From NCBI RefSeq assembly GCF_030684315.1, contig NW_026728244.1, positions 124,001 to 173,129 of the forward strand: DNA of 49,129 bases. The letters are read 5' to 3'. Position 1 is the first letter of the stretch. Each line of letters opens with the position of its first letter. The DNA comes from Stegostoma tigrinum. Lineage: Eukaryota. Shown here one piece after another: positions 4,905-41,025 of this stretch. The translations under genes were made by a program, and so were the position numbers. Under the pieces are notes generated by a model that ran no database searches, had not been told where the DNA came from, and saw nothing but the letters and a program-made list of their open reading frames with translations.

Positions 4905-7900
4905 CTGTAAAAAGGGGAAATGGCAGTGACCAGTCTGTAAGCCTGCACAGAAGGTGTGTGGAAAAGTTGGGTGGGGGGGGGGGGGGTTGTGAGAAAGAGC
5001 TCAGAGACTGTAAAGGAGAGGTGCTCACCGATTGCGTATCTTTATAACCAGGACCAGACCGATGAGGAATCCAACAGCTCCCACAATTACACCAACAGCA
5101 CAGATAACAGTCCCAGTGTGATCCTGTTGAGGAGGGGGATCTGTGTAAAAACAGGACAGAAACAATATTACACCAACATTCCCGTTACCACTCTTCACTG
5201 ATCGTCAGATATAGGCTTTCACAGGGCTCCCAGTGTAGTGTGTCAGTGTTTACAGGGGCTCCCAGTGTAGACCGTCAGTATTTACAGGGGCTCCCAGTGT
5301 AGACCGTCAGTATTTACAGGGGCTCCCAGTGTAGTGTGTCAGTATTTACAGGGGCTCCCAGTGTAGTGTGTCAGTGTTTACAGGGCTCCCAGTGTAGAGT
5401 GTCAGTATTTACAGGGGCTCCCAGTGTAGTGTGTCAGTATTTACAGGGGCTCCCAGTGTAGAGTGTCAGTATTTACAGGGGCTCCCAGTGTAGTGTGTCA
5501 GTATTTACAGGGGCTCCCAGTGTAGTGTGTCAGTATTTACAGGGGCTCCCAGTGTAGAGTGTCAGTATTTACAGGGGCTCCCAGTGTAGTGTGTCAGTAT
5601 TTACAGGGGCTCCCAGTGTAGAGTGTCAGTATTTACAGGGCTCCCAGTGTAGAGTGTCAGTATTTACAGGGGCTCCCAGTGTAGTGTGTCAGTATTTACA
5701 GGGCTCCCAGTGTAGAGTGTCAGTATTTACAGGGGCTCCCCGTGTAGTGTGTCAGTACTTACAGGGGCTCCCAGTGTAGTGTGTCAGTATTTACAGGGGC
5801 TCCCAGTGCAGTGTGTCAGTATTTACAGGGGCTCCCAGTGTAGTGTGTCAGTGTTTACAGGGGCTCCCAGTGCAGTGTGTCAGTGTTTACAGGGGCTCCC
5901 AGTGTAGAGCGTCAGTGTTTACAGGGGCTCCCAGTGTAGTGTGTCAGTACTTACAGGGGCTCCCAGTGTAGTGTGTCAGTATTTACAGGGGCTCCCAGTG
6001 CAGTGTGTCAGTATTTACAGGGGCTCCCAGTGTAGTGTGTCAGTATTTACAGGGGCTCCCAGTGTAGTGTGTCAGTGTTTACAGGGGCTCCCAGTGTAGA
6101 GCGTCAGTGTTTACAGGGGCTCCCAGTGTAGTGTGTCAGTATTTACAGGGGCTCCCAGTGTAGTGTGTCAGTGTTTACAGGGGCTCCCAGTGCAGTGTGT
6201 CAGTATTTACAGGGGCTCCCAGTGTAGTGTGTCAGTGTTTACAGGGGCTCCCAGTGTAGTGTGTCAGTATTTACAGGGGCTCCCAGTGTAGTGCGTCAGT
6301 ATTTACAGGGGCTCCCAGTGTAGAGCGTCAGTATTTACAGGGGCTCCCAGTGTAGTGTGTCAGTATTTACAGGGGCTCCCAGTGTAGTGTGTCAGTATTT
6401 ACAGGGGCTCCCAGTGTAGTGCGTCAGTATCTACAGGGGCTCCCACTGTAGTGTGTCAGTATTTACAGGGCTCCCAGTGTAGTGTGTCAGTATCTACAGG
6501 GGCACCCCGTGTAGTGTGTCAGTGTTTACAGGGACTCCCAGTGTAGTCTGTCAGTGTTTACAGTGGCTCCCAGTGTAGTGTGTCAGTATTTACAGGGGCT
6601 CCCAGTGTAGAGTGTCAGTATTTACAGGGGCTCCCAGTGTAGTGTGTGAGTGTTTACAGGGCTCCCAGTGTAGAGTGTCAGTATTTACAGGGGCTCCCAG
6701 TGTAGAGTGTCAGTATTTACAGGGGCTCCCCGTGTAGTGTGTCAGTATTTACAGGGGGTCCCAGTGTAGTGTGTCAGTATTTACAGGGGCTCCCAGTGTA
6801 GTGTGTCAGTATTTACAGGGGCTCCCAGTGTAGTGTGTCAGTATTTACAGGGGCTCCCGGTGTAGTGTGTCAGTATTTACAGGGGCTCCCCGTGTAGTAT
6901 ATCTGTAGTTGGGGAGAATCTCAGGGCAGGGGGTTTGTAGGTATGCATAGAGAGTCTGCCCAATGTCGGGTGTTACACAGCACTGGCAAACCCTGTACCT
7001 GGATCTGAATCTGTGCAGTAGACAGCAACCCTGTGTCTGACCTACCGAGTGAAACAGTGAGAGGCTGTTGCAGACTGATGTGATCCACACTGCATGCGTA
7101 GGTGTCCCCACTGCCCCGCCTCATCTGGATAGATTTCAGGATGTTAAATGTCCAATCCGGTTCCACCACTAACTGTGATGAGTTCACCTGGCCCCCAAAC
7201 GGCCTCCCATTGACCAGGAAACTCAGCTCAATCCCGAACGGATAGAATTTCTCTGCATAGCAGTACAGGATGTCCGGATGTCCTGGGCTCCTATTCGGCT
7301 CCATGTAGATGTGCACAGATGGTTTCTCTGTCGGACAAAGTGATTGCAGCATTAATGATTGGCCATTTGGTCCACTTTTCCTGATGGCGCACAGGAACTG
7401 TGGTGTCCCTGTGGAGTATGGGCCTCTCCCATTCTTCACCAACCCCGGGGGCAGCAGTGACAACCCCCCAACCACCTTCTCCATCAGACCAGCTGGGGAT
7501 AGGGCGGCACAGTGGCAATGCCTCGCCCTCTCATTGCTCTTGGGGGACAGTGTAGGGGAAGCTTTACTCTGTATCTAACCCTGTATTGTTCCTGTCCTGG
7601 GAGTGTTTGATGGGAGGCGCAGAGAGTGTAGAGGCAGCTTTAATCTAACTCGGTGGTGTCCCTGTGTTTTTTGGGGGAAAATGTCGAGGAAACTTTACTC
7701 TGTATCTTCTCTGTAACAAAACAGACCATGCATTTCTGCTCTGGGGATCTTGCTGTGCACTGAAGGTGTCCTGATGTTCAATGTACCCTCCGCCATCGAC
7801 TCCAGACTCCAAGCCCAGTACCCCTGGCTAGGGGGCAGATCATCCCTTCCTTTGTAGACCGAATAGACCCATACATGTGAGAGAGAGAGGGAGAAGGGAG

Positions 7901-10284
7901 CTAGGGTTGTGTGCTTGAAAATTATCAGGATGGAGAGATAGCAGTCAAGAGAAAACACAGTATCCCCAGCTTCATTAATCGAGGCTGAGGTGGGAGTGAA
8001 ATCAGAGAACATTGTAGAACCTGGGCACATCTTTCATTGTGAGGGTGAAAGAGAAGGCGATGATTAGCATTTTGAGTTCTTCCTAAGAGTGGGCGCCATT
8101 GGCGGACAAGAGACAGCTGGAGAAGATGGTAAGGGTGAACCAGACAAGGCAAAGGGAGAGCTCGCGGCGGTCAAGGATTGCTAGGGATATAAACTGGGTG
8201 TTAATAGTCGAGGGCTTTAGTGAGTGTTGACCGGACACAGGTGAGGGGAGGGGGCACAGCAGAAAAACTGAAGAGGCAGCGAAGTCAACAATGAGTTCCG
8301 AAGGAAGTAAGGTCCCCAAGCAGAACATGAGGGATTATCCTAGATAATGGGAACTGCAGATGCTGGAGAATTCCAAGATAATAAAATGTGAGGCTGGATG
8401 AACACAGCAGGCCAAGCAGCATCTCAGGAGCACAAAAGCTAAAGATTATCCTTCCAGCTTGTGTTGAGTTCCATCCAGACGTTGGGGCTGTCTCAGGACA
8501 TAAACTTCTGTCCAGGAGGTTGTTGCAGGGGGTGGGGGTTCTTAGGATGCTGGTCCGGCCTCCACTGGAGGATTGCTCCCAGTTTTTCTGGCACCCCTAA
8601 CCCCACAGCCCAACGTCCTCCGTGCTTTGGGTGAACACATTAAAGGGAAAGCGATTCATGGGAACAGTTCCTGGGATGAGGGGGAGGTCAGAGCAGGGAA
8701 GGCCAAAGGGAGATTCCATTGAGGTCTTGCCAAGCCACGACAGTGGTGGGGAGGGTGGGGTGCAGTCTGGGACGGAATAAAGGGGGAGAAGCCGGTGGAA
8801 GCATTGAGAGGGAACAATATGAGGAGAAACATTTTCACGCAGCGAACTTTCGGGATGTGGAACGTGTTGTCTGAGAGAGTGATGGGGGAGGCTTTTCAGG
8901 GGGAACTGGATGGTTATCAGAAAGAGGAGGATGTTGTCTTGTGGGGAGGAGGCGGGAGAGTAGGATTGGACGAGGGGCTCATCAGCGCAGAGAACATGAG
9001 CTGTCGTACGAAAGGGATGTCACATCGATGCTGATGGGGGAAGCCTGGGGATTCACAGCGTGTTCCCACTCTGTCGCACTCTGCACTGATCGTCCTGCTC
9101 CCTGGGGAACCAGCAACTTACTCTTGGCGATGGCCGTGGAGTTTGTCAAGTGGATCATCTCCCTGGTTGTGCCCCTCAGCCGGGCTTGGAAACCACGTGC
9201 TCTCTCACGGTAATAATCCACCTCGTCCTGACCCAGCTCCCGGATCCCGTCCGTCACTTGGCCGTTGATAACGAACGTTTGGGCTCCATAATCATAGAAC
9301 AGGAACGGGACATAGTTTATGCTGAACATGTCCAGGATGTTCTCGGAATGTGGAGTGTGGACGTAGTACAGACTCTCTGTCACTGCGCTGACCTCTAGCC
9401 AGGAGAAAGGAAGTTAAAAAATAGGTGTCAGAGTTTCCCGTTGTCTGACACACTCACCTGTTCATATCCTCACACACTCACGTTCACACCCTTACAAGCC
9501 CAAATCCTTTCATACTCATTCTCATGTTTGCACACTTACACATGCACTCACCCACTTACACACTCATGTTCACACCCTTACATGCTGAAATCCTGTCGCA
9601 CTCAGGTTCACACCTTGAGACACACACACCCTTACACACATTTAAATTCTCACACACTCATACCTTTATACGCTCACATTCAATCTCTTACACACTCACC
9701 CTTACATACACTCACAATCTTACGCACACTCAAACTCTTATACACTAATGCCCTTTACACACTTGTACCTTTACATACGCAAACTCTCACACTCACACCC
9801 TTTACCCACTCACATTCACACTCATACTCACACCCTTACACACACAGACTCTTACACACTCACACTGTTCCACAACCCATTCAAACACTTGCACACTTGC
9901 AGTTTAAAATTGCAACTCTAACACACTCAGTGTTACATTCACACATATTCTCTTACGCACAGACTTTCACACTCTTACACACTGACATGTTTAAGGACAC
10001 ACACTCCTACACACTCGCTTTTACATTTGCACGTTCTCTCATGCTCATATTCGCTCACGACCACATTCACACCCCATCTCACTCTTACACTCAGATTCTC
10101 ACACACATGCAACTCACACCACAACATACACAACTATGGGCCAAGTGCGGAGAAATGGGATTGGAATAGATAGATGCTCGAGGACTAGAATGGGCTGAAG
10201 GGCCTGTTAAAACCTCTGCGACTCACCAGTCTGTGCCCTGACTGCCGTCACCAGGATGAGAAGGCAGATCCCATGGAACTCCAT
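4865..10284 (-). CDS. WA: MHC W-category alpha chain, pair 1 (5 coding exons, about 254 aa)
   Basis: Exons 10284-10227, 9394-9122, 7327-7046, 5140-5029, 4904-4865. All introns are GT-AG with phases 1,1,1,2 and give an open frame: leader MEFHGICLLILVTAVRAQT; alpha1 EVSAVTESLYY...TNSTAIAK; C1-Ig KKPSVHIY...LYCYAEKFYP...QLVVEPDWTF...YACSVDH; class II-alpha-type TM TVICAVGVIVGAVGFLIGLVLVI; tail KIRNRQGAPSPSLSCKE*. Confidence 0.85.
5029..5140 (-). CDS. WA: WA-1 exon 4, connecting peptide/TM
   Basis: DPPPQQDHTGTVICAVGVIVGAVGFLIGLVLVIKIRN; ttttacacag acceptor, gtgagc donor. Confidence 0.85.
5218..6899. repeat. minisatellite, 32-bp unit (WA-1 intron 3)
   Basis: (cagtatttacaggggctcccagtgtagtgtgt)n. 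Confidence 0.95.
7046..7327 (-). CDS. WA: WA-1 exon 3, alpha2 C1-set Ig domain (beta2m-like)
   Basis: 282 nt, phase 1-1; LYC..FYP..DWTF..YACSVDH motifs. Confidence 0.92.
9122..9394 (-). CDS. WA: WA-1 exon 2, alpha1 groove domain
   Basis: 273 nt, phase 1-1, ctag| acceptor and A|gtaagt donor; PFLFYD strand motif and C-terminal N-S-T sequon. Confidence 0.85.
9445..10132. repeat. degenerate CA-rich simple repeat (WA-1 intron 1)
   Basis: cacactca/cccttaca units. Confidence 0.8.
10227..10284 (-). CDS. WA: WA-1 exon 1, signal peptide
   Basis: ATG in good Kozak context (gcgccATGG), hydrophobic MEFHGICLLILVTAVRAQT, phase-1 donor G|gtgagt. Confidence 0.85.
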
Positions 10285-17300: not shown

Positions 17301-20300
17301 CAATGAACCTCTAACAGCTCGTCAATTCTGACTGTTTGCACTTCGGCACTAACTGGCCCTGTGCTCTGAGTAATTGTGAATCATCCTGAAATGGCTGACA
17401 ACATTTGCATCAGACTATGAGTGACCCCAAGCTGTGAAACTGATGCCCGTCAGGATCTAAGTGACCCCATTAAAGGCAATTTCCTTTAAACCTCCCTGAA
17501 GTGGCGACTAACAGCTCCTGAGCTCTACCTGAAGCAATTAGCCTGAAGCTGACCTTCTGCTAAGACAAATGCAGTTAACCCCTGACAGGCAGTGGGTTGC
17601 ACGACCAGGCATCCAGCTTCTGAACGAGCCCCAGGCTCCCCTCTGACCGACTCGGCCCACCTTCATTCGGGTGACCACCTGTCGTTGCTTTCCTTTGCCA
17701 GGCCTCCACATTCTGCACGTGCTGTGCGACTGCGTCTACAGGGAGCAGCGGACCATTGTATCGTGGGAGGATGCTTACGATGGTGCCACCATAATGTACT
17801 ACGACCTGGCAAACAAGAGCTTCGTAGCAACACAGCCTTTCGCGCAGGGACAGGCAGACAGACGCAATTCAAACGGAGACTTTGTTCAGTCCGTCCCTCA
17901 GCAGATTGGCAGCCTGTGTGAGAAAATTAAGCAAACAGCGATCTTAACACACGTCAGCCAGCGGCAAATAGGTAGGGCTTCTCTTTTTTCTTTCTTTATT
18001 TACAATATCAAGATCAGAGCAGTGACACTCCCTCTCTCCATCACCGATGCACAGTGGGGGCTGAGCTCCAACACTCCCTCTCTCCACCACTGATGCACAG
18101 TGGGGGCTGAGGTTATTAGGAATGCTCGGCTAAGCTCCACATCTCTCTCTCCCTCCATCATCGATGCACAGAAGCAGCTGGGCCTTTTTAGGAATGATCA
18201 GCTAAGGTCCAACACTCCCTCCTTCCACGACCGAGGCACAGCACAAGCTGGACTCATTAGGAATGCTCGGCTGAGCTCCAACACTGTACTGGGTCAAATT
18301 CCCTGACCCTAACCCTGTGACTAATGACAATTAACCTCTAAACTGACCCAATCCCATAAATAATATCAATCCCTAGACTGTCTGTACTGGGGAGGGTTAG
18401 GAGATAGAGCAGGGTCCTGAGGCCTGTGAAAGTGGGGGAAGGGTGGCTCATCAGCTGTTTGGGCGTCACTTTACGAAGAGCTGTAGTTTCTGACAACTGT
18501 AAACTCTAACCCCGTGCCACGTCTGGGTCCACAGCCCCCACGTCCGTCAGAGCGTTTATGGAGGAGCGGGCCGGGCAGAGGTCGCTGCTGTGTGAGGTGA
18601 GGAATTTTTTCCCAGCGGATATTACTGTGAGCTGGCTGAGAGACGGTGCGGTCGTCGCCGACAGTTCAGAGACGGTGACGGTCGTGCCTCAGAGGGATCG
18701 GACGTACCAGGCCTGGACCCGTCTCACGCTGAGGGGTGACATGGGCGGTTCGTATTTCTGCCAGGTGGAGCATCAGGCCATCACCGGGAAAGTCCTCATC
18801 CCGCTTGGTAAGATCCCAAGGAATGGCAGTCCCTGTCCCCCTTTCACCCACACTGTGCCAAATCTCCACACTAAACCCAAATATTTACACGTTCAACAAA
18901 CAGGCCATCGTGGGGCACGCGGGCATCACTGGGAAGGCATTTGCTGCCCATCCCTTCCCCTCTCCCACCCCTCCGATTGCCCCTTCTCAGTGTCTCAGAG
19001 GGGCAGTTAACAGGCAAGCACCTCACTGCTGGCCTGGAGTCACATGTAGCAGCGGTTGGCACCTCCTTCGCTACAGATCCAGGCGGAATTTTAACCACAA
19101 TCTGGGGTCTCAAAGTCGGGGGGGGTGGGGGGTGGTGAGGGGAGGGGTGGTGCTTTCTTCTTGTTAATTCATTGTGTTAAAACTCCCTCCCATCCACCTG
19201 CCAGGGTTAGGACTTGAACCTGTGATGCCCGCCTATAGAGGGGTGGGGTGGGTGGGTTGGTGTGGGCAGGGGATCTGTGTCCCAGGGATATTCCCACAAG
19301 GGGTATTGTGGGAAGTAACGAGGGGAAAATGTGCTGGGGTGGGGGGGGTTCCTGTGCGGGTGTCACAAACAAAAAGTAAATTCTAACCCCTCTCCCCCCA
19401 CCCACCCAACTCTCTGACTGCCCCCTTTCCTCAGAAAGTGACGCGACCATCACTAGTGAAACAGCATTGACCATCATTGGGGCAGTCCTGGGCCTCCTGG
19501 GATTGAGCTTCGCACTGGTCGCTGCCATTCTCTACTGCCGCTTCTTCAACCGTAAGCAACGATGTTCCCTTGGGATACAGGAGCCCACAGACGGGAGTGG
19601 AGAGAAGGAGAGAGGACAAAATGGGAGCGAGAGAGCGTGGGAGAGAGGGAGAGAATGGGAGAGGGAGAGAGAGAAAATGGGACAGAATGGGAGAGACAGA
19701 GAGAATGGGAGGGAGAGAGAGAGAATGGGATAGGGAGAGAGAATGGGAAAGAGAGAGACAGAGAGAGGGAGGGAGAGAGAGAGAGAGAGAGACGGGGGAG
19801 AGAGAGAGAGAGATGGGGAGAGGGAGGAAGAGAGATGGAGTGAGGGAGTGAGGGAGACGGGGAGAGGGAGTGAGCAAGGCACTGGGAGAAGTAGTAGGAG
19901 TGTGAGAGAGGGAGAGCGATCCCTGATGGAATCGAGTGGAAAATGGGAGGCCTTGTCTGCGGGGGGTGGGGAGATCAGTGAGGGCCTGAGCCTGGACTGA
20001 ACCTGTCCCTTTGTCTGTTTGTCCGGCAGGTTGTTCCCGAGTGTGTGTCAACCCGACAGGTGAGAGAGACTGTCCCTTCACCGCGGTCTTCATTCCGAGG
20101 GGGGGGGGGGAGGGTGGTGGGAAATATGCTGGAGGCAGCGCGGCAATAATTCCAACACCGTGGTCTCCGTCCCTCTTCCAGCAAAGTTCACCAGCCGTGG
20201 AGGAGTTCCATGTCGCTCCAATCTGTGCAACAGCAGTGTCCGATCCAGCAGCTCCGACACTTCCAACACCAGCACCACGTCAGGTAACAGCGAGGCTGGG

Positions 20301-22546: not shown

Positions 22547-22559
22547 ACCTCCGAATAAC

Positions 22560-24056: not shown

Positions 24057-24059
24057 GTT

Positions 24060-26332: not shown

Positions 26333-26529
26333 TCAGGCCGAGCTCGAGTGACGTAAGCAGGAAGACATCTGGACAATCAGACAATTCCAGATATCTACCA
26401 ATGGCCGCCAGCAGCACAGCAAGATCCCAGCTATTATCCCCACCACCCCGAGTAGCAGCCCACAGACTAACACGGCCAGTTGACCCGAATCCAGGGCAGA
26501 TTCTTCCCAGATATCCCCGGTTTCTGGCT
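26333..26529 (-). CDS. WA: WA-2 exon 4, CP/TM/cytoplasmic
   Basis: ttttccacag acceptor; EPETGDIWEESALDSGQLAVLVCGLLLGVVGIIAGILLCCWRP...SSSA*. Confidence 0.8.
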
Positions 26530-29500
26530 CTGTGGAAAACAAAAGACAGAAAAGATTATTTGCAACTGTTGGAATATGGAACCTCCCTCCCCCCACCCCC
26601 CAACCTTTGCTGAGGACGTCTATAGCCAGGAGCTTGGCTCCTGTTCATATCCAATTTCTTAGAAGGGCAACGCTCTTAAAAGCATTGGCTCAAGCGGGAT
26701 GGGATGCTGCTTTACCCCAGGCTTCTCAAGTGTTGTCAGAGCTGCTCCCATCCAGGGCAAGAGGGAAGTGTCCATCACCCTCCTGACTTGTGCCTCGTCG
26801 ATGGTGGGACAGACTTTGCGGGGAGAGTCAGGACGGGAGTTACTCGCTGCAGGGCTCCCAGCCTCTGACCTGCTCCTTGCAGCCATTGCATTGATATGGG
26901 GCTGGGGTCCCGTCTGCTCAATGGGAATCCCGAGGATATTGATAGTGGGGGCTGGAAGGGATTCATTGATCGCCATTGAACGTCAAGTGGGGCGCAATGG
27001 TTAGATTCTCGCTCGTTGGAGATGATCAATACTTGGCATTTGTGTCAGGTGAACGTCACATGCCACTTGTCAGCTCGAGCCTGGATGTTGTCTTGCTGGG
27101 CTCACAGAGTCATACAGCACGGAAACAGACCCTTCGGCCCAGCCAGCCCGTGCTGACCCCATAAACCCAAACTAAACTAGGCCCAGCTGCCTGCTTCTGG
27201 CCCATATCCCCCCAAGCCTTTCCTATCCATGAACTTATCCAAATGACTTTTAGAAGTTGTGATGTATTCACATCCACCACTTCCTCTGGCAGTACGTTCC
27301 ACAGCAATGAAGGCTTTTGGTAAATCAAACAAATGCAGAACTTATTAAACTAAAATAGAACATTGCATAGTGCTGATAACCTCAAGATCCAGGGACATAG
27401 TTCTTTGAAGTTGGCGTCACAGGTAGACAGGGTGGGGAAGGGAGCGCTCGGCGCGCTGGCCTTCATCGCTCAGACCCTCTGAGTGTAGGAGCTGGGGACG
27501 TCACGTTGAGGTTGTACAGGGACGTTGGTGAGGGCCTCTCCTGCAGCGCTGTGCCCCAGCTCTGGTTGCCCCTGTTACAGGGACTGGAGAGGGTTCGGGA
27601 GGGATTCACCAGGATGTTGCTGGGAATGGAGGGGCTTGAGTTAAAGGGAGGGGCTGGGGCTTCTTTCCACTGGAGCATGAGGGTGTGACCTTACAGAGGT
27701 TTATAAAATCACGAGGGCCGTGGGTAGGGTGAATAGCAAACGGGTTTTCTCCCCCCACCGGGGTGGGCGAATCCAAAACTAGGGTGAGAGGAGAAAGATT
27801 TAACAAAGACACAAGGAGCAAGTTCTTTATCACACAGAGGCTGGTCTGTGTGTGGAATGAATTTCGGGAGGAAATGGTGGGTGTGGGCACCGTTACAATG
27901 TTTAAAAGATATTCAAATAAGTACAAGAATAGGAAAGGTTTTGTGGGTTTAGGGGATGGTGTGGAGGTGCTGGATATGGCCCAGAAGCATAGTTTACATT
28001 GGAACTATCGTCAGCACGGACTGGTTGGGCCAAAGCGTCTGTTTCCTTGCTGTAAAACCCAATGGGTGAAGAAGGCAGCTCACTACCGCCTCCTTCAGGG
28101 GCAGCAGTTACCAGCAAGGCCTGTTTCGCTGGAGGAAGCAAGGGGAGGGGGCTGTTACCAGGGGTTTCGGTTGCGCTTACCCCAGAAGACCACTTTCTCT
28201 TCTTGGCTGATGTTGTGCCTCACGACACAGGAGTACAGGTGCCCGGGGCCCGGTCGGATGCGAGCGTACCATAATGCCTGGAATCGCCATCCCTTGCTGA
28301 AGAAGATCCTTGAGGAGTTGACGTCGGAGCCGAGGGGAACGCCATCCAAATGCAGGCTGACGGCAACGGAGGGGGGGAATAGCCCGGTCACCAGGCAGAC
28401 AAGAACATTCGGCTGGCCCCACTCCACTACCATCTCCGGGTACAGGAAGATCTCGCCCACTTCTGCAGAGAGAAGGAACAAGACAGCCCCTAGGTGTGAC
28501 ATCAACAGTTCGAACCTGAGCCCAAGCCCAGGCTCTCCGGGGCCGAATAATACACACAGGCCTCGGGCCTGCTCTAGAGGGGAAGGGACGGGGCTCAAAT
28601 CGATTCGTGTGAATAAATTCGATTCGCAAACTCCACGGTCTTTGGTGAATGTTGACCACTCGGCCCATCAAATCTGCGCCAGCGACAAGAGAAACGAGTC
28701 CAAGTCCACACCAGGCCCACTTTCCCACACTAGGCCCAAAGCCTTTAATGACATGTCAAGGGTGGGTACAGACTTGTTTAAACCTGTGAGGTAATCCCGC
28801 CGCCATCAACGGCCGTCCCAGGCACAACATTCCAGAAGCCCACCAGAGCCTCGTTCTTTTCTTGCCTCAAACTCCGCTCTGAACGTTTCGTTTCAAAATT
28901 TAACCCCGTTGACTAAGGGGGAGCAATGCTTTCTATCCCTCCCCTGCCCGTGCGCCTCCTAACCTGACACAGCCCTCACTCAACCTTGCCCACTCCACAG
29001 AAAATAATTCCGACCTCTTTCCATCCCTCTGTCTCAGACGACATCCCAGCGAATCTCCCCTCATTACCCCAGCGCCAACGCGGAGACAGAACCGAACAAA
29101 ATACTCCGGCTGTAGCCTCACCAAAGCCCTGTACAGCTCGAACATCACCCCCTCGCTCTTATACTCTATAACCACAGCTGGCACAGAATTGTACAGCACA
29201 GAAACAGACCCTTCGGCCCAACCCGTGCGTGCCGACCCAGAAACCCTAAATTAATCCACTCCCCATTTGCCAGCACTTCCCTCTAAACCCTCCCTATCCT
29301 GTACCCATCCAGATGCCTTTTAAATGTTGTAACTGTACCAGCGCCCACCAACTTCCTCTGGCAGCTCGTTCCATACCCCCCAGCGTGAAAAAGTTACCCC
29401 TCAGGTTCCTTTTAAATCGTCCCCCTCTCACCTTAAACCTCTGCCCCTCCAGTTTTGGACCCCTCCACCCTTGGCGGGGGGGGGGGGGTAAGGGATCCAC

Positions 29501-31817
29501 CCCCCTCCACACAGAGGTAGACAGGGTGGCGAGGGAGGGCTTTGGGACACTCGCCGTTATCGGTCGGTGCGTTGAGTGTAGGAGTTGGGAGGGTCGTGTA
29601 TTGGCGAGGCCGCTTTGGGAATACCGCGTTCAGTTCTGGCCTCCCCTCCTACAGGAAGGAGTAATGAAACTTGAAAGGATGTTGGAGGGTTTGAGATGAG
29701 GGATAGACTGGGGCTGTTCTCCCCGCGGAACGTCAGAGGGGTGACCCTGTAGAGGTTTGTAAAGTCATGGGGGCCATGGATAGGGGACATAGACGAGGTC
29801 ATTTGCCCCAGGCTAGGGGCAAGTTTCAGCAGGGGCTTTTAATCATGCAAATCCAATTTAGCACAGCCAACAGTTTCCACATCTCCCGGCTCCCAGCTCT
29901 ACTCCCCGCCCAACCCAAAATCCGAGATCCTCAACCTCGAGCTGAGTCCGAAAGGTTCACTTGTAAAGGTACATGCACCTCCAACAGCTGGGGACTGTGC
30001 GCAGGCAGACTCTGCCCCCCCACCCCCCACCCCCCCACCAAGGGGTGAACAGTTTTGAAGCTCCCCCACTCACCATTTGGGCTGTTGGAGTGATTGGTCA
30101 CTGCGGCCGCTATGGCCATAGCTCTCCGTAGTGACGCCACAGTCCTGCCATGATCTTGTGAGAATTCTGTCAGGATCATGCGGTAGTCTTCGAAACCCGG
30201 GTACAGGAACTGTATGTCTGGTAAGCTGCTGTCGTAGTAGATGAAGGGTCTACCTTCGACCTGCAGCTCACACACCAACCCCGGGAATCTGGGATCATCC
30301 GCCACAAAACAGCCGAACTGCATGTTCCACCTGTCTGAGAGGGATCAACAGTTGGAGATGTTAACCCAAACCATCAGAATCAGGATGCCCGCGCAAGAAT
30401 GCAAGGTCGGTTTCTTTTTCAAAGTGCTTGGGGGACAGGGAGAGCAGGAGGAGGCCACTCAGCTTTGTTCTGATTGGGCCACTTTCTCATCACCCATCTC
30501 CCCCTCCCACCTCCGATTCCCAAAGCCTTCTGCTCCCCTCCTCAATCCACCTCTCTGGCAGTTGGGCTGCGGGGGTGGGGGGGGGGGGGTAGGTGAGGGG
30601 AGAGAATCCCACAGACTCCTCCAGCCTCCAACAGAAGAGCTGATGCCCTTCTCCTTGTCCGATGGGAGACCTCCCCACCTTCAGGCAACAAAACTGGGCA
30701 CGGTGTTCCCAGTGGCATTTCACCACTACATTTGGAGAAAGACTTGTGCAGCCTTATACAGGTTGGAGCAAATTCCAATCTTCTTCCTCATTCCTTACGA
30801 TTCACACAACCAGGTTTCTCCACTTCCTGTAACGACTCTTCGAGTCTCCAGTTAAGATATTACTATATTGAATAGACCCAGTCAGGATGACGAGGGACGT
30901 GGACGGAACTGGCAGGGGATGGTGCTCCCTGTGAGTATGCTGCTCCCTCACCCTTTCTGCGGGGCGAGGGGGGGGGGGGTTGTGTGTCAGGGGTAGAGGG
31001 TTTGGCAGGTTCGGAAGGTGCCGTGGGAGGAGCCTCGGCGAGTCGCTGCGGTGCATCTTGTGGACGGCACACACTGCTGCCCCTCTGCGTGGCTGTTGGA
31101 GCTCAGCCGAGCATTCCTAATGACCCCAGCTGCCGCTGTGCATCAGTGGTGGTGGGAGGGAGAATTGAAGGTGGCGGGGGGTGTTGGCATGTCCATCAAG
31201 AGCAGGAAGGGAGGTTCAATGGGAACCCCAAGGATTTTGATAGTGGGGTGGGTGAAATTCAGCAATGATGATGCCATTGAACATCAGGGGAGGAGGGTGT
31301 GCTAGTTAGATTCTCTCTCGTTGGAGACGGTCACTGCCTGGCATTTGTGTGGCGCAAATGTTAGTTGCATCTTTGCCAGCCCAAGAATATTGACTTGGTG
31401 ACCTCATTGGCGCAGGTGGCATCGTCAGCAGTTGGGTTGGCGGCGGGTAGCAGAGAGGGTTTTGGGAGGGGTCATGTGAGATACGGAGAGGGTGGGGACA
31501 GAGATGGAGGTGAAATGAGCCGTTCCTTTGGACTGGGTAAGAAATGGTCCAGATGGAGGGTGGGTGGAGAGCAGCTGCAGGATCTTGCTGCGCTTGGACG
31601 AGGCTTCGGAAGTGCCCAGAAGTTTTAGACTCTGACTATCCTGGTTCCCCTTTCCCATCCCACTGCCCGCTTCCTCCGTCTCCCCAGCCCCAAGCCAGCT
31701 GAGGCTTAACCGCACCCCCCATCCCCTAGTCTTTAAACCACCTCACTCACCAGACCCCTGGCACAGCCAGAGAGAGGGCAGAAGGCAAACCAAAGTGAGG
31801 AAGGACTCACTAGCCAT
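26333..31817 (-). CDS. WA: MHC W-category alpha chain, pair 2 (4 coding exons, about 268 aa; 3' end uncertain)
   Basis: Exons 31817-31751, 30334-30074, 28462-28181, 26529-26333; GT-AG, phase 1. Leader MASESFLTLVCLLPSLWLCQGS; alpha1 DRWNMQFGC..VEGRPFIYYD..TNHS; Ig EVGEIFLYP..LVCLVTGLFP..RIFFSKGWRF..YSCVVRH..VVFW; TM LVCGLLLGVVGIIAGILL. A donor at TTG|gtagat could shorten the last exon. Confidence 0.87.
27390..28060 (+). mobile_element. degenerate CR1 LINE 3' fragment
   Basis: LERVREGFTRMLLGMEGL, FFITQRLVCVWNE. Confidence 0.7.
28181..28462 (-). CDS. WA: WA-2 exon 3, alpha2 Ig domain, strongly beta2m-like
   Basis: 282 nt; VNSSRIFFSKGWRFQALWYA aligns with human beta2m [20 protein letters not shown]. 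Confidence 0.93.
30074..30334 (-). CDS. WA: WA-2 exon 2, alpha1 groove domain
   Basis: 261 nt, phase 1-1, ctctcag acceptor, gtgagt donor. Confidence 0.85.
31751..31817 (-). CDS. WA: WA-2 exon 1, signal peptide
   Basis: 67 nt, G|gtgagt donor. Confidence 0.8.
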
Positions 31818-32487: not shown

Positions 32488-32536
32488 ATGGAAATCACTC
32501 TCCTCCTGTTGGCAAGTGGAGTCCCCTTGGGACAGG
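32488..32536 (+). CDS. WB: WB-2 exon 1, signal peptide
   Basis: gccgATGG, MEITLLLLASGVPLGQ, G|gtaagg donor. Confidence 0.75.
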
Positions 32537-35500
32537 GTAAGGGCAGTGGGGAGGGGGTAGATGCAGGGTGTGGGGGGTAAATGGGGGGTGTGGGGGTGGG
32601 GGGGTAAATGGAGGTGACATTGAGAGGTGTAATTTGAGGGTGAGGGTGCTCTCCCTCACTCTCCCTCCTCTCCCTCACTCTTCCTCCATCCCTCTCTCTC
32701 CCTCATCCTTCTCCCTCTCTCACTCTCCCTCCATCTCTCTCTCTCCACACACCCTCCTCCATCCCTCTCTCTCCCTCATCCTTCTCCCTCTCTCACTCTC
32801 CCTCCATCTCTCTCTCTCCACACACCCTCCTCCATCCCTCTCTCTCCCTCATCCTTCTCCCTCTCTCACTCTCCCTCCATCTCTCTCTCTCCACACACCC
32901 TCCTCCATCCCTCTCTCTCCCTCATCCTTCTCCCTCTCTCACTCTCCCTCCATCTCTCTCTCTCCATCACACACCCTCCTCCATCCCTCTCTCTCCCTCA
33001 TCGTTCTCCCTCTCTCACTCTCCCTCCATCTCTCTCTCTCCACACACCCTCCTCCATCCCTCTCTCTCCCTCATCCTTCTCCCTCTCTCACTCTCCCTCC
33101 ATCTCTCTCCCCATCACACACCTTCCTCCACATCTCTCCCTCTCTGTCTCTCGCCCTCACTCCCTCATTCTTCTCCATCTCTCTCTCTCCCTCACACGCC
33201 TTCCTCCACATCTCTCTCCCTCTCGCTCTCTCTGTATCCCTCTCCACACACCCTCCTCCATCCCTCTCTCTCTTCCCCCCCTCAGGCTTTAACATGATGC
33301 AGTTCCTACTCGCCGTCGGGAAGCCGGGCCAGTTGACCACGTTACGGTTTGCCTACGATGGGACCGATGTCCTTCAGTTTAACTACAGCAGCGAGAGGTT
33401 CGAGCCGCTCCACCAGGCAGCGCAGCCCTTTGCGCAGCAGTTCAACCAAAACCCAGACATGCTGAGGAGCTACCGACGCCACAAGGACTACGCACCCCTC
33501 ATCACCAAAACCATCGTCAACGTGGCACAGGGGCTGGCAGGTCAGTCACACTCACCCCCAGGCAGTGAGGCAGGGTCAGAACGTGTGACAGAGGTCGGGA
33601 GGGGGCTGGACGGGGGACGGAGACGGGGAGGGGGTGACGGAGATAGGGAGGGGTGTAGGGGGCTGGAGGGGCTGACAGAGATAGGGAGGGGGTGTAGGGG
33701 CTGGAGGGGGTGACAGAGATAGGGAGGGGGTGTAGGGGGCCGGAGCGGGTGACAGAGATAGGGAAGGGGTGTAGGGGGCTGGAGGGGCTGACAGAGATAG
33801 GGAGGGTGTGTAGGGGGCTGGAGGGGGTGACAGAGATAGGGAGGGGGTGTAGGGGGCTGGAGGGGCTGACAGAGATAGGGAGGGGGTGTAGGGGCTGGAG
33901 GTGGTGACAGAGATAGGGAGGGGGTGTAGGGGCTGGAGGGGGTGACAGAGATAGGGAGGGGGTGTAGGGGCTGGAGGGGGTGACAGAGACAGGGAGGGGG
34001 TGTAGGGGGATGGAGGAGGTGACAGAGATAGGGAGGGTGTGTAGGGGGCTGGAGGGGGTGACGGAGACGGGGAGGGGGTGTAGGGGGCTGGAGGGGCTGA
34101 CAGAGATAGGGAGGGGGTGTAGGGGGCTGGAGGGGGTGACAGAGATAGGGAGGGGGTGTAGGGGGCTGGAGGGGGTGACGGAGATGGGGAGGGGGTGTAG
34201 GGGGCTGGAGGGGCTGACAGGGATAGGGAGGGGGTGTAGGGGGCTGGAGGGGGTGACAGAGATAGGGAGGGGGTGTAGGGGGCTGGAGGGGGTGACGGAG
34301 ACGGGGAGGGGGTGTAGGGGGCTGGAGGGGCTGACAGGGATAGGGAGGGGGTGTAGGGGGCTGGAGGGGCTGACAGAGATAGGGAGGGGGTGTAGGGGGC
34401 TGGAGGGGGTGACAGAGATAGGGAGGGGGGTGTAGGGGCTGGAGGGGGTGACAGAGATAGGGAGGGGGGTGTAGGGGCTGGAGGAGGTGACAGAGATAGG
34501 GAGAGGGCGTAGGGGGCTGGAGGGGGTGACAGAGATAGGGAGGGGGTGTAGGGGGCTGGAGGGGCTGACAGAGATAGGGAGGGGGTGTAGGGGGCTGGAG
34601 GGGGTGACAGAGATAGGGAGGGGGTGTAGGGGGCTGGAGGGGCTGACAGAGATAGGGAGGGGGTGTAGGGGCTGGAGGTGGTGACAGAGATAGGGAGGGG
34701 GTGTAGGGGCTGGAGGGGGTGACAGAGATAGGGAGGGGGTGTAGGGGCTGGAGGGGGTGACAGAGACAGGGAGGGGGTGTAGGGGGATGGAGGAGGTGAC
34801 AGAGATAGGGAGGGGGTGTAGGGGGCTGGAGGGGGTGACGGAGACGGGGAGGGGGTGTAGGGGGCTGGAGGGGCTGACAGAGATAGGGAGGGGGTGTAGG
34901 GGGCTGGAGGGGGTGACAGAGATAGGGAGGGGGTGTAGCGGGCTGGAGGGGGGTGACGGAGACGGGGAGGGGGTGTAGGGGGCTGGAGGGGCTGACAGGG
35001 ATAGGGAGGGGGTGTAGGGGGCTGGAGGGGGTGACAGAGATAGGGAGGGGGTGTAGGGGGCTGGAGGGGGTGACGGAGACGGGGAGGGGGTGTAGGGGGC
35101 TGGAGGGGCTGACAGGGATAGGGAGGGGGTGTAGGGGGCTGGAGGGGCTGACAGAGATAGGGAGGGGGTGTAGGGGGCTGGAGGGGGTGACAGAGATAGG
35201 GAGGGGGGTGTAGGGGCTGGAGGGGGTGACAGAGATAGGGAGGGGGGTGTAGGGGCTGGAGGAGGTGACAGAGATAGGGAGAGGGCGTAGGGGGCTGGAG
35301 GGGGTGACAGAGATAGGGAGGGGGTGTAGGGGGCTGGAGGGGCTGACAGAGATAGGGAGGGGGTGTAGGGGGCTGGAGGGGGTGACAGAGATAGGGAGGG
35401 GGTGTAGGGGGCTGGAGGGGCTGACAGAGATAGGGAGGGGGTGTAGGGGCTGGAGGTGGTGACAGAGATAGGGAGGGGGTGTAGGGGCTGGAGGGGGTGA

Positions 35501-38500
35501 CAGAGACAGGGAGGGGGTGTAGGGGGATGGAGGAGGTGACAGAGATAGGGAGGGGGTGTAGGGGGCTGGAGGGGGTGACGGAGATGCATAGTAGCCAGTA
35601 TAAGTTAAGTGACCACCTCTCCCTCTGTGCCCAGCAAAATTCGCCCTCAGGACCACATCCTGACTTTAGGAAGCTGTGCAGAGTAGAAATGGCCATTCTG
35701 CCCATTGAGGGTGGGGGACAGGCCAGGTGCGGCCGGGTTGTGTGTCGTGTCTGAGCTGTCCATCGTTCCTTCAGCTTCAGTGCGGAGATCAATCCACATT
35801 CCTCCTTTCGCCCGCAGCCAAACCTTCTGTTACTATCCGCACGCGCCGCATGACAAGCAGTAGTGAGCCTCTCCTCCTGAGTTGCCACGTGAATGGTTTC
35901 TATCCGCGGGATATCAACATCAGCTGGCTGCTGAATGGCGCTGCCCTCGAACAGGCACACACCAGCACCACTTTACCCAATGCAGATGGCACCTTTCAGC
36001 TCATGGGGCACATCGGCATTGTTCCCAGGAACGGTGACACATACACCTGCCAAGTGGAGCACAGCAGCAGTTCAGACAAACTCACGGCCAACTGGGGTAA
36101 GGAAGTGTTGAAGGGCTGAGTGGGTGTTGCTCTGTTTATTATCTGACCCCTACAGGCTGGGCACACTGGCCCCTTTGGTTGCTAGTGCAGACTGAGTACT
36201 CAGTATAATCGTGTATCGTGCAAATAAATCCGAACGTGAGTTTTAGCCTGAAGGCCTTCGGCAGAACAGTGGGTTGGGGTGAGAGCATTCAATTTGCCAG
36301 AGACTTCAGCTTTCATTCCCCATCAGTGAAGTGTCGATTAGAAGCCATCATAGCCGCCCAACCTGTTTGTCTGAGATACCTTGGACCAGCCTGCTGTATT
36401 CAAAACAGGCTGCGGTTATATTCGAGGCTGAGAGAGAGAGAGATGTTTAATCAGGAAGGGGGGGGATCGAGGGGTTATATTCGAGGCTGAGAGAGAGAGA
36501 GATGTTTAATCAGGAATGGGGGGGATCGAGGGGTTATATTCGAGGCTGAGAGAGAGAGATGTTTAATCAGGAAGGGGGGGGATCGAGGGGTTATATTCGA
36601 GGCTGAGAGAGAGAGATGTTTAATCAGGAAGGGGGGAAGTCTGGGGGTCATGGATTTGGTTAAAGCCAGGTAACGCTCGACTGGGAGACTGTGAACGCAT
36701 TCTGGGGGCGAATGGGGTTTCAGGTGGGAGACATGTGGGTGTAATGAATCACACTGGACTCTTCTTCTGTTTCACTGCCCCCCCCCCTCAGAATCGACGG
36801 TGAAACTCTGGCCATCTGGCGGATACGCTATCGGGATAATCTTTGGAATTATTGGCATCATCTGTACTGTGACCGGCATGGTTGGCCGACGGCTAGGTAG
36901 GTGCGGAATCTGTGCGTCTGACCAAGCCGGAGGATCCCTGCAGCCCCCCACCTGCCGTCCTTCCCAAACTCAGGGAGTGGAATCGCTCCCCAGCACCCCA
37001 TACCATTCCAGGTCGTACTGAGCACCGACAAATCACCAGGCCCCCTCGCAGATGTCTCCCATTTGCTCCGGCCTGCATTTCCCGACATTTCACTCTCCCA
37101 CAGAGATGGGATGAGGTTGAGATCCTGCGGGTGCCAGGGTTGGGGGGTGGTGGGTGGTCGCGGGGACCGCTGGAGCAGGAGGTGGCTGCGGTGGGTCAGC
37201 CCCAATCTCAGACCCATCTCTTGGTTACTTTCTCCCCAGGGCACCATGCCAGGACCAACCAGAACCAACGCAACGCCCACTCAGAGGGTAGCTCGGGCAT
37301 CACTGGCGCAGGTAACACTAAAGCCCCCAATCCCCTAACATCTCCCTCCCCTCCCCCAACAACGCCCCCTCCCCCACCACCAACACCGTCCCATCCCCCA
37401 CTCAACACCGCCCCATCCCCCATTCAACACCGCCCCGTCCCCCACTCAACACCGTCCCATCCCCCAGTCAACATGCCCCATCCCTCCAAACACAGCCCCA
37501 CCCCTCAAACACCACTCCTTCAACCCTCAAAACCAGCCCATCACCCCACAAACGCCGACCCAACCCTCACAAACCACTAACATTAACCTACCTCCCACCC
37601 CGCACTCAACACCAACCCATCACCCACTCAACAGCACCCCAAACCCTCTAAATCACCCCCCTAGTCCCCGCCAAACACCACCCCATTCCCCCTAAATCAC
37701 CCCCCTAGTCCCCTCCAAACCCCACCCCAAACCCCTAAATCAACACCCTAGTCCCCTCCAAACACCACCCCACTCCCCTAAATCACCCCCCTAGTCCCCT
37801 CCAAACACCACCCCATGCCCCCAAATCACCCCCCTAGTCCCCTCCAAACACTACCCCATTCCCCTAAATCCCCCCCTAGACACCTCCAAACACCACCCCA
37901 TTCCCCTCAATCACCACCCTAGTCCCCTCCAAACACCACCCCATTCCCCTAAATGACCCCCCAAGTCTTCTCCAAACACCACCCCATTCCCCTCAATCAC
38001 CCCCATAGTCCCCTCCAAACACCACCCCATTCCCCTAAATCACCCCCCAGTCCCCCCCCAAACACCACCCCATTCCCCTAAATGACCCCCCAAGTCTCCT
38101 CCAAACACCACCCCATTCCCCTAAATCACCCCCCTAGTCCCCGCCAAACACCACCCCATTCCCCTAAATCACCCCCCTAGTCCCCTCCAAACACCACCCC
38201 ATTCCCCTAAATCACCCCCATAGTCCCCTCCAAACACCACCCCATTCCCCTAAATCACCCCCCTAGTCCCCTCCAAACACCACCCCATTCCCCCTAAATC
38301 ACCCCCTAGTCCCCTCCAAACACCACCCCATTCCCCTAAATCACCCCCCTAGTCCCCTCCAAACACCACCCCATTCCCCCTAAATCACCCCCCTAGTCCA
38401 CTCCAAACACCACCCCATTCCCCTAAATCACCCCCCTAGTCCCCTCCAAACACCACCCCATTCCCCCTAAATCACCCCCCTAGTCCCCTCCAAAAACCAC

Positions 38501-41025
38501 CCCATTCCCCTAAATCACCCCCCAGTCCCCTCCAAACACCATGCCATTCCCCTAATCACCCCCCAGTCCCCTCCAAACACCACCCCATTCCCCCTAAATC
38601 ACCCCCATAGTCCCCTCCAAACACCACCCCATTCCCCTAAATCACTGCCCTAGTCCCCTCCAAACACCACCCCATTCCCCCTAAATCACCCCCCTAGTCC
38701 ACTCCAAACACCACCCCATTCCCCCTAAATCACCTCCCTAGTCCCCTCCAAACACCACCCCATTCCCCCTAAATCACCTCCCTAGTCCCCTCCAAACACC
38801 ACCCCATTCCCCTAAATCACCCCCCTAGTCCCCTCCAAACACCACCCCATTCCCCCTAAATCACCTCCCTAGTTCCCTCCAAACACCACCCCATTCCCCT
38901 AAATCACCCCCCTAGTCCCCTCCAAAAACCACCCCATTCCCCTAAATCACCGCCCTAGTCCCCTCCAAACACCACCCCATTCCCCTAAATCACCCCCCAG
39001 TCCCCTCCAAACACCACCCCATTCCCCTAAATCACCCCCCTAGTCCCCTCCAAACACTACCCCATTCCCCTAAATCACCCCCCAGTCCCCTCCAAACACC
39101 ACCCCATTCCCCTAAATCACCCCCCTAGTCCCTTCCAAACACCACCCCATTCCCCTCCAGTACTCTAATACCAATCTCAAGCCCATCTAACCTACACTAT
39201 TCCATGTACGTCCATATGCTTATCCAATGACCACTTATATGTACCTAAAGTTGGCGAATCTACTACTGTTGCAGGCAAAGCGTTCCATTCCCTTACTACT
39301 CTCTGAGTAAAGAAACTACCTCTGACATCTGTCCTATATCTTTCACCCCTCAATTTAAAGCTATGCCCCCTCGTGCTCGCCATCACCATCCTAGGAAAAA
39401 GGCTCTCCCTATCCACCCTATCTAACACTGATTATTTTATATGTTTCAATTAAGTCACCTCTCAACCTTCTTCTCTCTAATGAAAACAGCCTCAAGTCCC
39501 TCAGCCTTTCCTCGTAAGACCTTCCCTCCATTCCAGGCAACATCCTAGTAAATCTCCTCTGCACCCTTCCCAAAGCTTCCACATCCTCCTTATAATGCGG
39601 TGACCAGAACTGTACGCAATACTCCAAGTGCGGCCGCACCAGAGTTTTGTACAGCTTCAGCATAACCTCTTGGTTCCGGAACTCGATCCCTCTATTAATA
39701 AAAGCTAAAACACTGTATGCCTTCTTAACAGCCCTGTCAACCTGGGCGGCAACTTTCAAGGATCTGTGTACATGGACACCGAGATCTCTCTGCTCATCTA
39801 AACTACTAAGAATCTTACCATTAGAATGACACCATTTGTTAGGTGTCTGGATGGGAACATGGATAGGAAGGGTTTAGAGGGATCGGGGCCGAATCATTGC
39901 ACTGAACAGTCTGTTTGTGTGCTGTATGGCTCTATGACTGGGAACACGCATTTGAGGTGAGTTCAAAGGTGATGTGAGGGGCAAGGTTTTTTTTTACACA
40001 CAGAGTAGTAGGAATGAGGAACGTGTTGCTAAGTGCGGTGGTGGGAGCAGGGTTAAGGGCCGTTAGGGTTAGATAAGCCCATGGACATGCAAGGAATGGA
40101 GGGATATGGGCCTCGGGCAGGCAGAAGGAAGTAGTTTCATTTTGGTTCAGTAAAACACTGTGGGCCGAAGGGCCTGTTCCTGTGCTGTGCACTGTTCTAT
40201 GACCGAGTGCCCTGTCTGGCCTGTGTAAATGAGCCTAAGCTTAAGTAGGAACACCCTCCCCTCCCCGCCCCATCCACATCAATAGAAGGTGGAGAGTGTC
40301 AAGTTCCTCACAGTGACAATAAAGCGACAACTTGCCCTGGACTCCCCCCGTAGACACGACAGCACAACATCCTCTTCTTCCTCAGGCAGCTCGGGAAATT
40401 TGCCGTGCCCCTCACCAGCTTCTGCGGACGCACCGTAGAAAGCAAACTGTCCGGGTGCCTGACGGTCTCGTATGCTCAGGGCCGTGAGAAACTGCAGAAG
40501 GTGCAGTGCACAGTCCAGACCCTCACTTAAGCCAACCTTCCATCCATGAACTCTACTTGTAGGGCTCACTGCCGCAGAAAGGCGTCCAACATCGTCAAAG
40601 AGCCCCCACCCCTCCCCAGGAATCTCTTCCATCAGGCAGGAGGTACAGAAGCCTGAGCGCACGCACATGTTCATCAGGAACAGCTCCCTGCCTGCTGTCA
40701 TCAGGCTGATGGGTGTGCTTCTCTCATTTCAAAATCTACTACCGTTCTGTGCACCTCCTGTACAGCCGTGACCCCGTATGCACCTCGCAACCCGCCCGCG
40801 CCGCTCGCACAACAAAACTTTTCACTGTACTCGGGCTCACACAGCAACAATGCATCAATCAGGGAGTGTTACAGATCAACGCTGCCCTAGGACCCACTCT
40901 GACCTGGTTTTCCTCTTCTGCTCTTGTTTTTTGCAGGGAGCTGCGCACAGGCAGAGGCAGAACGCCTGTACGGGGCAGGTGACCGGCATCCCAGTCCCAC
41001 TGACATCGACCTGAGTCAGTGCTGA
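32488..41025 (+). CDS. WB: MHC W-category beta chain, pair 2 (6 coding exons, about 282 aa)
   Basis: Exons 32488-32536, 33286-33540, 35818-36096, 36792-36896, 37240-37311, 40937-41025; GT-AG, phase 1, open frame. beta1 GFNMMQFLL..RFAYDGTDVL; Ig LSCHVNGFYPRDINISWLLNG..LPNADGTFQ..YTCQVEH; TM GGYAIGIIFGIIGIICTVTGMVG. Confidence 0.85.
32655..33280. repeat. CT-rich tandem repeat, about 72-bp unit (WB-2 intron 1)
   Basis: repeated cctcctccatccctctctctccctcatccttctccctctctcactctccctccatctctctctccacaca. Confidence 0.85.
33286..33540 (+). CDS. WB: WB-2 exon 2, beta1 groove domain (no cysteines)
   Basis: 255 nt, phase 1-1; Q at position 6 and AYDGxD as in class I alpha2. Confidence 0.88.
33630..35586. 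repeat. minisatellite, 39-bp unit, G-rich (WB-2 intron 2); reverse complement of the 15390-17215 array
   Basis: (gtgacagagatagggagggggtgtagggggctggagggg)n. Confidence 0.95.
35818..36096 (+). CDS. WB: WB-2 exon 3, beta2 Ig domain, class I alpha3-like
   Basis: 279 nt; LPNADGTFQ motif. Confidence 0.93.
36413..36636. repeat. tandem repeat, about 60-bp unit, about 3.7 copies
   Basis: ggttatattcgaggctgagagagagagatgtttaatcaggaag... Confidence 0.85.
36792..36896 (+). CDS. WB: WB-2 exon 4, TM
   Basis: ESTVKLWPSGGYAIGIIFGIIGIICTVTGMVGRRL; G|gtaggt donor. Confidence 0.82.
37240..37311 (+). CDS. WB: WB-2 exon 5, cytoplasmic
   Basis: tttctccccag acceptor, 72 nt phase 1-1, GHHARTNQNQRNAHSEGSSGITGA. Confidence 0.65.
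37640..39158. repeat. minisatellite, about 43-bp unit (WB-2 intron 5)
   Basis: (cccctccaaacaccaccccattcccctaaatcacccccctagt)n. Confidence 0.95.
39175..39825 (-). mobile_element. CR1 LINE 3' fragment
   Basis: ORFs 39418-39759 and 39192-39428. Confidence 0.85.
40937..41025 (+). CDS. WB: WB-2 probable terminal coding exon
   Basis: long polypyrimidine tract ending ttttttgcag; GSCAQAEAERLYGAGDRHPSPTDIDLSQC-TGA. Confidence 0.55.

Follow-up and report, generated by a model that had tools for sequence, protein, structure and literature searches.

The window analysed here is a 49,129-nt stretch of the zebra shark (Stegostoma tigrinum) genome (NCBI RefSeq assembly GCF_030684315.1, contig NW_026728244.1, positions 124,001 to 173,129 of the forward strand), and it holds two head-to-head alpha/beta gene pairs of the major histocompatibility complex (MHC) type, WA-1/WB-1 and WA-2/WB-2. 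We found that WB-2 is almost certainly an MHC beta chain of the W-category, DS1 subgroup, and that the absence of cysteine from its beta1 domain is very probably an old, conserved trait rather than decay. Judging from the residues at its groove positions, WB-2 together with WA-2 may form a surface molecule with a hydrophobic groove for a lipid-like ligand and not for peptide, a reading to which we give a probability of roughly 0.4. W-category molecules are defined by a class II build combined with class I interface residues (PMC8713811), and a place between class II and class I of the MHC, as intermediates, has been proposed for them.

Gene structure, splicing and subgroup of WB-2

WB-2 is RefSeq XP_059499879.1 (P0003), and its six exons, all open and with GT/AG sites, translate exactly to this protein. 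On the plus strand they comprise a leader exon of 16 codons plus 1 nt (32488..32536), a phase 1 beta1 exon of 255 nt with AG/GT borders (33286..33540), a 279-nt beta2 exon encoding an Ig C1 domain (35818..36096; Pfam C1-set match, E 2.3e-20), an exon for the connecting peptide and a Gly-rich transmembrane segment (36792..36896), a first cytoplasmic exon that RefSeq isoform X3 lacks (37240..37311), and a last coding exon running to the stop codon (40937..41025). This is the class II plan of a leader, one membrane-distal domain, one C1 domain, a membrane segment and a tail. The 282-residue chain has cysteines only at 124, 179, 219, 256 and 282, with C124-C179 lying in beta2 together with W138, and the exon translation bore out the sequence-only reading that the 255-nt beta1 exon (residues 17 to 101) encodes none. 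The position of class I C101 is occupied by V27, and the equivalent of the helix Cys is K83 by the alignment of PMC8713811, Y85 by phmmer and MAFFT, and A86 by the exon-end count and the helix break. By composition, 84 Cys-free codons are unremarkable (P 0.12-0.28 at 2.5-1.5% Cys), and the absence is notable by position only. We also considered a missed upstream Cys in beta1 and ruled it out: the split first codon is Gly and not Cys because the last base of the leader exon is G, and contigs show the splice.

Spliced forms of WB-2 exist in two samples of one study, in contigs that give no level or tissue. Eight of the 11 listed sequencing runs contain the stretch, none of them recorded as RNA, and contigs were sought in four (X1, X2, X5 and X6). 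One X5 contig joins leader, beta1 and beta2, and its loose ends match the leader end and the beta2 start; it is the only contig spanning the whole beta1 exon and hence the only one bearing on polymorphism there, with 0 differences from the window. One X6 contig has the beta1-beta2 joint, and X1 and X2 gave no contigs for the WB-2 stretch. A second X6 contig joins 33540 directly to 40937 in frame, skipping beta2 and the membrane exon. Its product would be a 130-residue leader-beta1-tail protein with neither Ig domain nor membrane anchor, and this single contig from one sample could be splicing noise or an assembly path. Domain-skipping forms recur in DS1 annotations (models P0134 and P0029), where a second DS1-like model of the great white shark lacks beta2 but includes beta1 and the membrane part, and a manta ray isoform includes beta2 but lacks beta1; these forms may be real or may be assembly gaps.

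The published marks of W-category chains are A32, G35 and D37 in beta1, P57 and G61 in beta2, and W61, F/Y57, F/L37 and Y8 in alpha2 (PMC8713811). At the beta1 positions WB-2 has A39, G42 and D44, with Q22 corresponding to Q6, and at the beta2 positions it has P155 and G159, with no W61; WA-2 fits the alpha2 marks with W168, F164, L at 37 and Y117, and has Ile, not Leu, at position 55. In class I numbering, the residues Q22, A39, G42, D44, P155, D158 and G159 of WB-2 are Q96, A117, G120, D122, P235, D238 and G239. The motifs quoted in the earlier reading as class I-like (GFNMMQ, RFAYDGTDV and LPNADGTFQ) are all present. Its claim holds for the interface motifs, which define the W-category, but not for Q96 and D238, which are not class I-specific because D238 also occurs in the class II motif quoted there and Q96 is partly shared with class II. 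The proposed match of GFNMMQ to class I GSHTLQ extends to the G and the Q only, and the His that is kept in 9 of 10 DS1 sequences is Asn here.

A short beta1 without helix Cys fits the DS1 subgroup. In a tree of C1 domains (n=25, one frog sequence left out), WB-2 beta2 falls beside whale shark in a clade of 13 DS1-type shark and ray rows, with a support of 84/95 that is below the marking threshold of the tool. This domain is 94% identical to whale shark P0004, which matches the row called "whale shark WB DS1 like", and it also agrees with the DS1 rows of Datasets S1 and S2 (PMC8713811). WB-2 is the orthologue of WB DS1 of Okamura et al. 2021 (PMC8713811). It is not a classical class II beta chain, having no beta1 C15-C79 disulfide and a Gly at the invariant beta2 W61, nor is it a class I heavy chain, as the leader is spliced straight to beta1 and P0003 has no alpha1 exon. 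The class I look of a W-category exon from houndshark was reportedly published in 1992, and that exon may well be DS1.

The beta1 cysteine pair across relatives

Orthologues were collected by a HMMER search and a C1 profile search, which recovered DS1-type chains from basking, great white, two cat, saw, horn, sevengill and bamboo sharks, two mobulid rays and a stingray; word-index protein searches with WB-2 beta1 returned WB-2 itself only (1/38 and 1/14 candidates). The alignment (A2) has 13 DS1 rows, 11 of them with beta1. Neither the Cys pair nor the helix Cys is present in any of these 11 shark and ray domains, the strand Cys alone is kept in two (Pristiophorus and Heterodontus), and nine have a beta1 of 86 residues. 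A partial manta beta1 (P0159), excluded from this count, contains a single Cys, non-canonical in position and outside the helix. In the published Dataset S1 (PMC8713811) the pair is found in 0/8 DS1 rows, one of which is partial. A Cys-less beta1 is not special to WB-2; it is a trait of the published DS1 subgroup. The five-codon difference from WB-1, correctly read from the exons (255 vs 270 nt), is also a DS1-versus-Nds5 trait, with 86 residues in great white DS1 and 91 in great white Nds5 as counted in Dataset S1.

In class I alpha2 and class II beta1 the pair was said to be nearly invariant, and our count by eye in Dataset S1 agrees, with 32/32 class II beta1 rows and 36/39 class I alpha2 rows having it. 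Among the 48 WB rows of the same dataset, 19 are without the pair (DS1 8, DS3 5, salamanders 5 and lungfish 1), and it is kept in all Nds5 (4/4) and teleost (22/22) WB rows. The non-classical class I rows have it in 19 of 22, those lacking it being a dogfish gene and two CD1 rows; the alpha2 pair is missing from chicken CD1-2 and bandicoot CD1, and CD1a, CD1d, MR1, HFE, ZAG, MICA and FcRn all keep theirs. Because 19/22 of these rows keep the pair whatever the ligand, its loss points to lipid only faintly and, taken alone, does not predict the class of ligand. A literature search on the chicken CD1 disulfide found no paper, and the main text of PMC8713811, as far as it was available, carries no comment on the loss under cysteine or disulfide.

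The beta1-type bridge of classical molecules lends stability to the region of the platform that has no Ig support (PMC8236899), its mutation impairs the binding of HLA-A2 to the chaperone TAPBPR (PMC6926029), and classical shark class II retains it (PMC8010645). The added DS1 orthologues show that this near-universal disulfide is dispensable in this subgroup. The helix Cys would have disappeared before sharks and rays diverged and the strand Cys afterwards, along several lineages, and hydrophobic packing may have taken the place of the lost pair. Tiger salamander WB is also without the canonical pair, although a different Cys pair is present between its strands 1 and 2, and tiger salamander WA and WB reach the cell surface only when together (PMC8713811). 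In the zebra shark, the DS10-like alpha1 exon of WA-2 (30074..30334, minus strand) carries C31 and C44 at class I positions 9 and 24, which could form a cross-strand bridge between strands 1 and 2, across the hairpin, in the groove floor. Dataset S1 has such an alpha1 pair in 6 of 7 DS10 rows, the skate row lacking it, and the idea of the alpha1 pair as a required replacement for the beta1 pair was rejected as a rule. A Cys pair at 101 and 112, like that of WA-2 alpha1, is seen in WB DS3 and salamander WB in the same dataset.

Predicted pairing with WA-2, groove chemistry and possible ligand

WB-2 is predicted, with good confidence, to pair with its head-to-head neighbour WA-2 (RefSeq XP_048382004.1, P0162). 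The ATGs of the two genes lie 670 nt apart, 438 of which are N, and head-to-head WA/WB pairs are the W-category rule (PMC8713811). On the minus strand, WA-2 further consists of the leader (31752..31817, tblastn limits), the alpha2 Ig C1 exon (28181..28462), in which the W-category positions are Y8, L37, F57 and W61, with I at 55, and the coding part for the connecting peptide, transmembrane and cytoplasmic segments (26336..26530, tblastn limits). A model of the WA-2/WB-2 ectodomain complex reached 0.80, against 0.00 for the best of three controls, with a contact agreement of at least 86% and a partner pLDDT of at least 80. This mark is attained by 51/78 solved and 2/108 mismatched microbial pairs, and by 71/105 solved and 2/126 unrelated eukaryote pairs. 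In the model, W168 contacts Q22, A39 and G42, while Y117 contacts L154, and the class I-based numbering is supported because the strand register pairs F29 with L25. It seems that WA-2/WB-2 would assemble through a class I-type interface, with alpha2 W61 lying under beta1 Q96/A117/G120 and alpha2 Y8 set against the beta2 P57 region, and that the dimer would reach the cell surface.

The AlphaFold2 model of WB-2 alone shows a beta1 of four strands plus a helical layer and a beta2 of C1 fold (mean pLDDT 75, pTM 0.53), with beta1 blocks at pLDDT 79-95, and among solved chains it comes closest to class II beta, namely HLA-DP/DR beta (Foldseek E 1e-14). The domains of this single-chain model are placed unlike those of solved chains (rmsd 7-12 A), and therefore it gives no groove information. 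A model of beta1 only, with a helix break at 83-85, aligned to class II beta with a middling score (Z 7.5, rmsd 2.3 over 65 residues). Its last helix failed to line up with MHC templates (aligned 1-65/67), which we do not take as a real shape change because this helix should pack on the alpha chain.

By sequence position, 0/16 floor positions of WA-2/WB-2 are charged and their mean hydropathy is 2.94; in WA-1/WB-1, 3/16 are charged, all acidic, and the mean is 1.69. Positions 143, 146 and 147, which are T, K and W in classical class I, are F, Q and F in WB-2 and Q, R and R in WB-1. Among the DS1 chains, position 143 is aromatic in 9/10 and W147 is absent in 10/10. Ten beta1 groove positions have a hydropathy of 1.7-2.7 in all ten DS1 chains, compared with 0.38-0.54 in three fish class I chains and 2.2 in a marsupial protein annotated as ZAG-like. 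A floor free of charge and an aromatic side chain at 143 would rule out peptide anchoring of the classical type and would accommodate an acyl chain or the like. This hydrophobic floor with its missing peptide anchors is better evidence on the ligand than the Cys loss; the sequence-only reading had suggested a non-peptide or empty groove, which fits these features, and the Cys loss it pointed to is weak evidence for the type of ligand. On these residues we tentatively favour a lipid-like ligand for WA-2/WB-2. According to a personal communication quoted in a review, shark UFA and UGA bind lipids (PMC12562908). No ligand or structure study of W-category molecules was found by title or abstract, most subscription literature lying outside the coverage of that search.

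Several points weigh against this reading of a WA-2/WB-2 dimer with a lipid-like ligand. The pass of the complex model may reflect solved MHC molecules already familiar to the predictor and is no proof that this copy binds, and the model cannot tell WA-2 from WA-1 as the partner of WB-2. The groove positions were chosen by class I numbering, the hydropathy comparison set is six chains only, and at the same ten positions a lizard class II and a frog chain reach 1.03 and 1.13. Most lipid binders keep the disulfide, and the alpha1 Cys pair is not a universal compensation because the skate row is without it. DS1 identity is 0.40 in the groove columns, 0.40 over beta1 and 0.62 in beta2. No fixed small ligand is indicated, because the groove is no more alike than beta1 overall, and with an identity so low it is the hydrophobic character of the groove that is kept and not its residues. 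Zebra shark WB-2 also lies on a long branch, and a floor this hydrophobic and bulky would be just as compatible with a collapsed groove.

A closed or empty groove, with the helices collapsed on the hydrophobic floor and the outer surface serving as a receptor ligand or chaperone, is nearly as likely as the lipid-like ligand that we favour. HFE, FcRn and DM have closed grooves and are the models for such a molecule. The bulky residues stand at 97, 99, 114, 116 and 143, and the low groove identity with maintained hydrophobicity points the same way, as do a DS1 helix elbow four residues shorter than that of Nds5 in the alignment of PMC8713811 and the finding of groove-type conservation in the teleost W subgroup only (PMC8713811). 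A collapse is harder to reconcile with the outer helix positions, which are poorly conserved except R81 and Y82 (8/10 each), and with the Ala-rich end of the WA-2 alpha1 helix, which would leave room; moreover, HFE, FcRn, MICA and DM beta retain the disulfide in the rows at hand.

Non-classical binding of peptides, such as hydrophobic signal or transmembrane peptides, is improbable, although the MHC fold is predicted intact with class II beta chains as the best matches and a Tyr stands at or near 159 in 6/10 DS1 chains. The equivalents of T143, K146 and W147 are replaced as described, alpha1 has F at position 7, the class II helix motif Cys-x-His-Asn is missing, and the W subgroups are described as being without full peptide-binding sets or high polymorphism (PMC8713811).

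Selection was gauged by protein relative-rate tests and not by dN/dS. Set against five sharks, the zebra shark has more private changes in 15/15 beta1 and 15/15 beta2 tests (9 and 7 of them at p<0.05; the tests overlap), but the rate increase looks lineage-wide because bamboo shark beta2 is equally fast when compared with zebra shark (7:6, 9:5, 4:6). Decay of WB-2 in carpet sharks, or relaxed selection on it there, with the Cys loss or other changes amounting to loss of function, is very unlikely: the long branch, the changes H19N, T52S, A57P and P60Q at sites kept in 9/10 DS1 sequences, the one-residue deletions in beta1 and in beta2 and the one contig skipping beta2 and the membrane exon would suit it, but the speed-up is shared, the Ig core and each of the five invariant residues of beta1 are retained, and the six open exons with GT/AG sites are spliced. 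The Cys loss is not a lesion of this copy because the pair is missing in all orthologues; the sequence-only reading had tied decay to orthologues that keep the pair, and none of the 11 DS1 beta1 domains does.

Neighbouring genes and likeness to known systems

Compared with Datasets S1 and S2 of PMC8713811, WA-1 is DS5-like, WB-1 Nds5-like, WA-2 DS10-like and WB-2 DS1-like. The comparison gene WB-1 lies on the plus strand, with a beta1 exon of 270 nt and three Cys (17702..17971) and a beta2 exon with P57 present and Arg at 61 (18535..18807); its leader was not found in a scan of the window. WA-1 lies on the minus strand, with an alpha1 exon without Cys (9122..9394) and an alpha2 exon with W61, F37 and Y8 (7046..7327). 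A Pfam search gave no match for WB-1 beta1, WA-1 alpha1 or WA-2 alpha1. The third Cys of WB-1 beta1 is at class I position 99, adjoining the canonical pair, as it is in 4/4 Nds5 rows of the published alignment, where it would leave an unpaired thiol in the groove floor, next to the acidic floor residues alpha1 E7 and D24 and beta1 D116. With the odds against it, we raise the proposal that DS10/DS1 has been a two-chain, lipid-binding MHC molecule of class II build since before the shark/ray split, the beta1 helix disulfide being given up and the alpha1 floor stapled, and that the sister DS5/Nds5 floor is charged and has a free Cys, in which case the cluster would cover two ligand chemistries.

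A 502-nt inverted duplicate (99.8%) of the WA-1 upstream region and leader exon lies at 10191-10692 and 43632-44133, the second copy being oriented away from the cluster. At ~47270-47480 on the plus strand there is a weak DS5-like alpha1 relic in shifting frames (tblastn 36% over 36 residues, E 7e-4 within the window), for which no DNA-level match was found; it may represent a third WA gene, no longer intact, lying behind the duplicated leader. Long tandem-repeat arrays occupy W-gene introns at 33600-35585, 5217-6898, 20298-22108 and 22559-24063, and the reverse-transcriptase fragments at ~158-1291, 24897-25553 and 39418-39873 are presumably LINE-like. In RefSeq, the W-category genes (P0003, P0162, P0168 and others) are named as ordinary class II alpha or beta "like" chains, and therefore the W-category is hidden in name-based surveys. 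Elasmobranch W-type genes are described as multicopy and located outside the MHC (PMC10751288).

Among known systems, WB DS1 (banded houndshark DS1 and DS1-like; PMC8713811) shares with WB-2 the class II beta architecture, the residues Q6, A32, G35, D37, P57 and G61, the lack of a canonical beta1 pair, the short beta1 and the Gly-rich membrane segment. WB-2 differs in having a beta1 of 85 residues instead of 86 and Asn for H3, and its beta1 identity to other DS1 chains is 19-38%. Dataset S1, in the part available, has no carpet-shark DS1 beta1 row; WB-2 adds one to a known subgroup, the main facts of which are already in the published alignment. The other WB subgroups (Nds5, DS3, teleost and salamander) have the same category motifs and head-to-head pairing. 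DS3 and salamander WB (5 rows each) resemble WB-2 in having no helix Cys but possess a strand 1-strand 2 Cys pair instead, whereas DS1 has no Cys pair at all and a like pair sits in the alpha1 of its predicted partner. Classical class II beta chains share the domain and exon plan of WB-2, which differs from them by the missing C15-C79 and helix His-Asn and by G for W at beta2 61.

CD1, ZAG and shark UFA/UGA each consist of a single heavy chain, in most cases associated with beta2-microglobulin. They have hydrophobic groove positions like those of WB-2, a comparison of how the molecules may work that is made by sequence position only, and some CD1 are without the alpha2 pair, as WB-2 is without that of beta1. 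Unlike these single-chain molecules, WB-2 would be half of a two-chain molecule, and if WA-2/WB-2 binds lipid, a class II-type heterodimer would do a CD1-like job.

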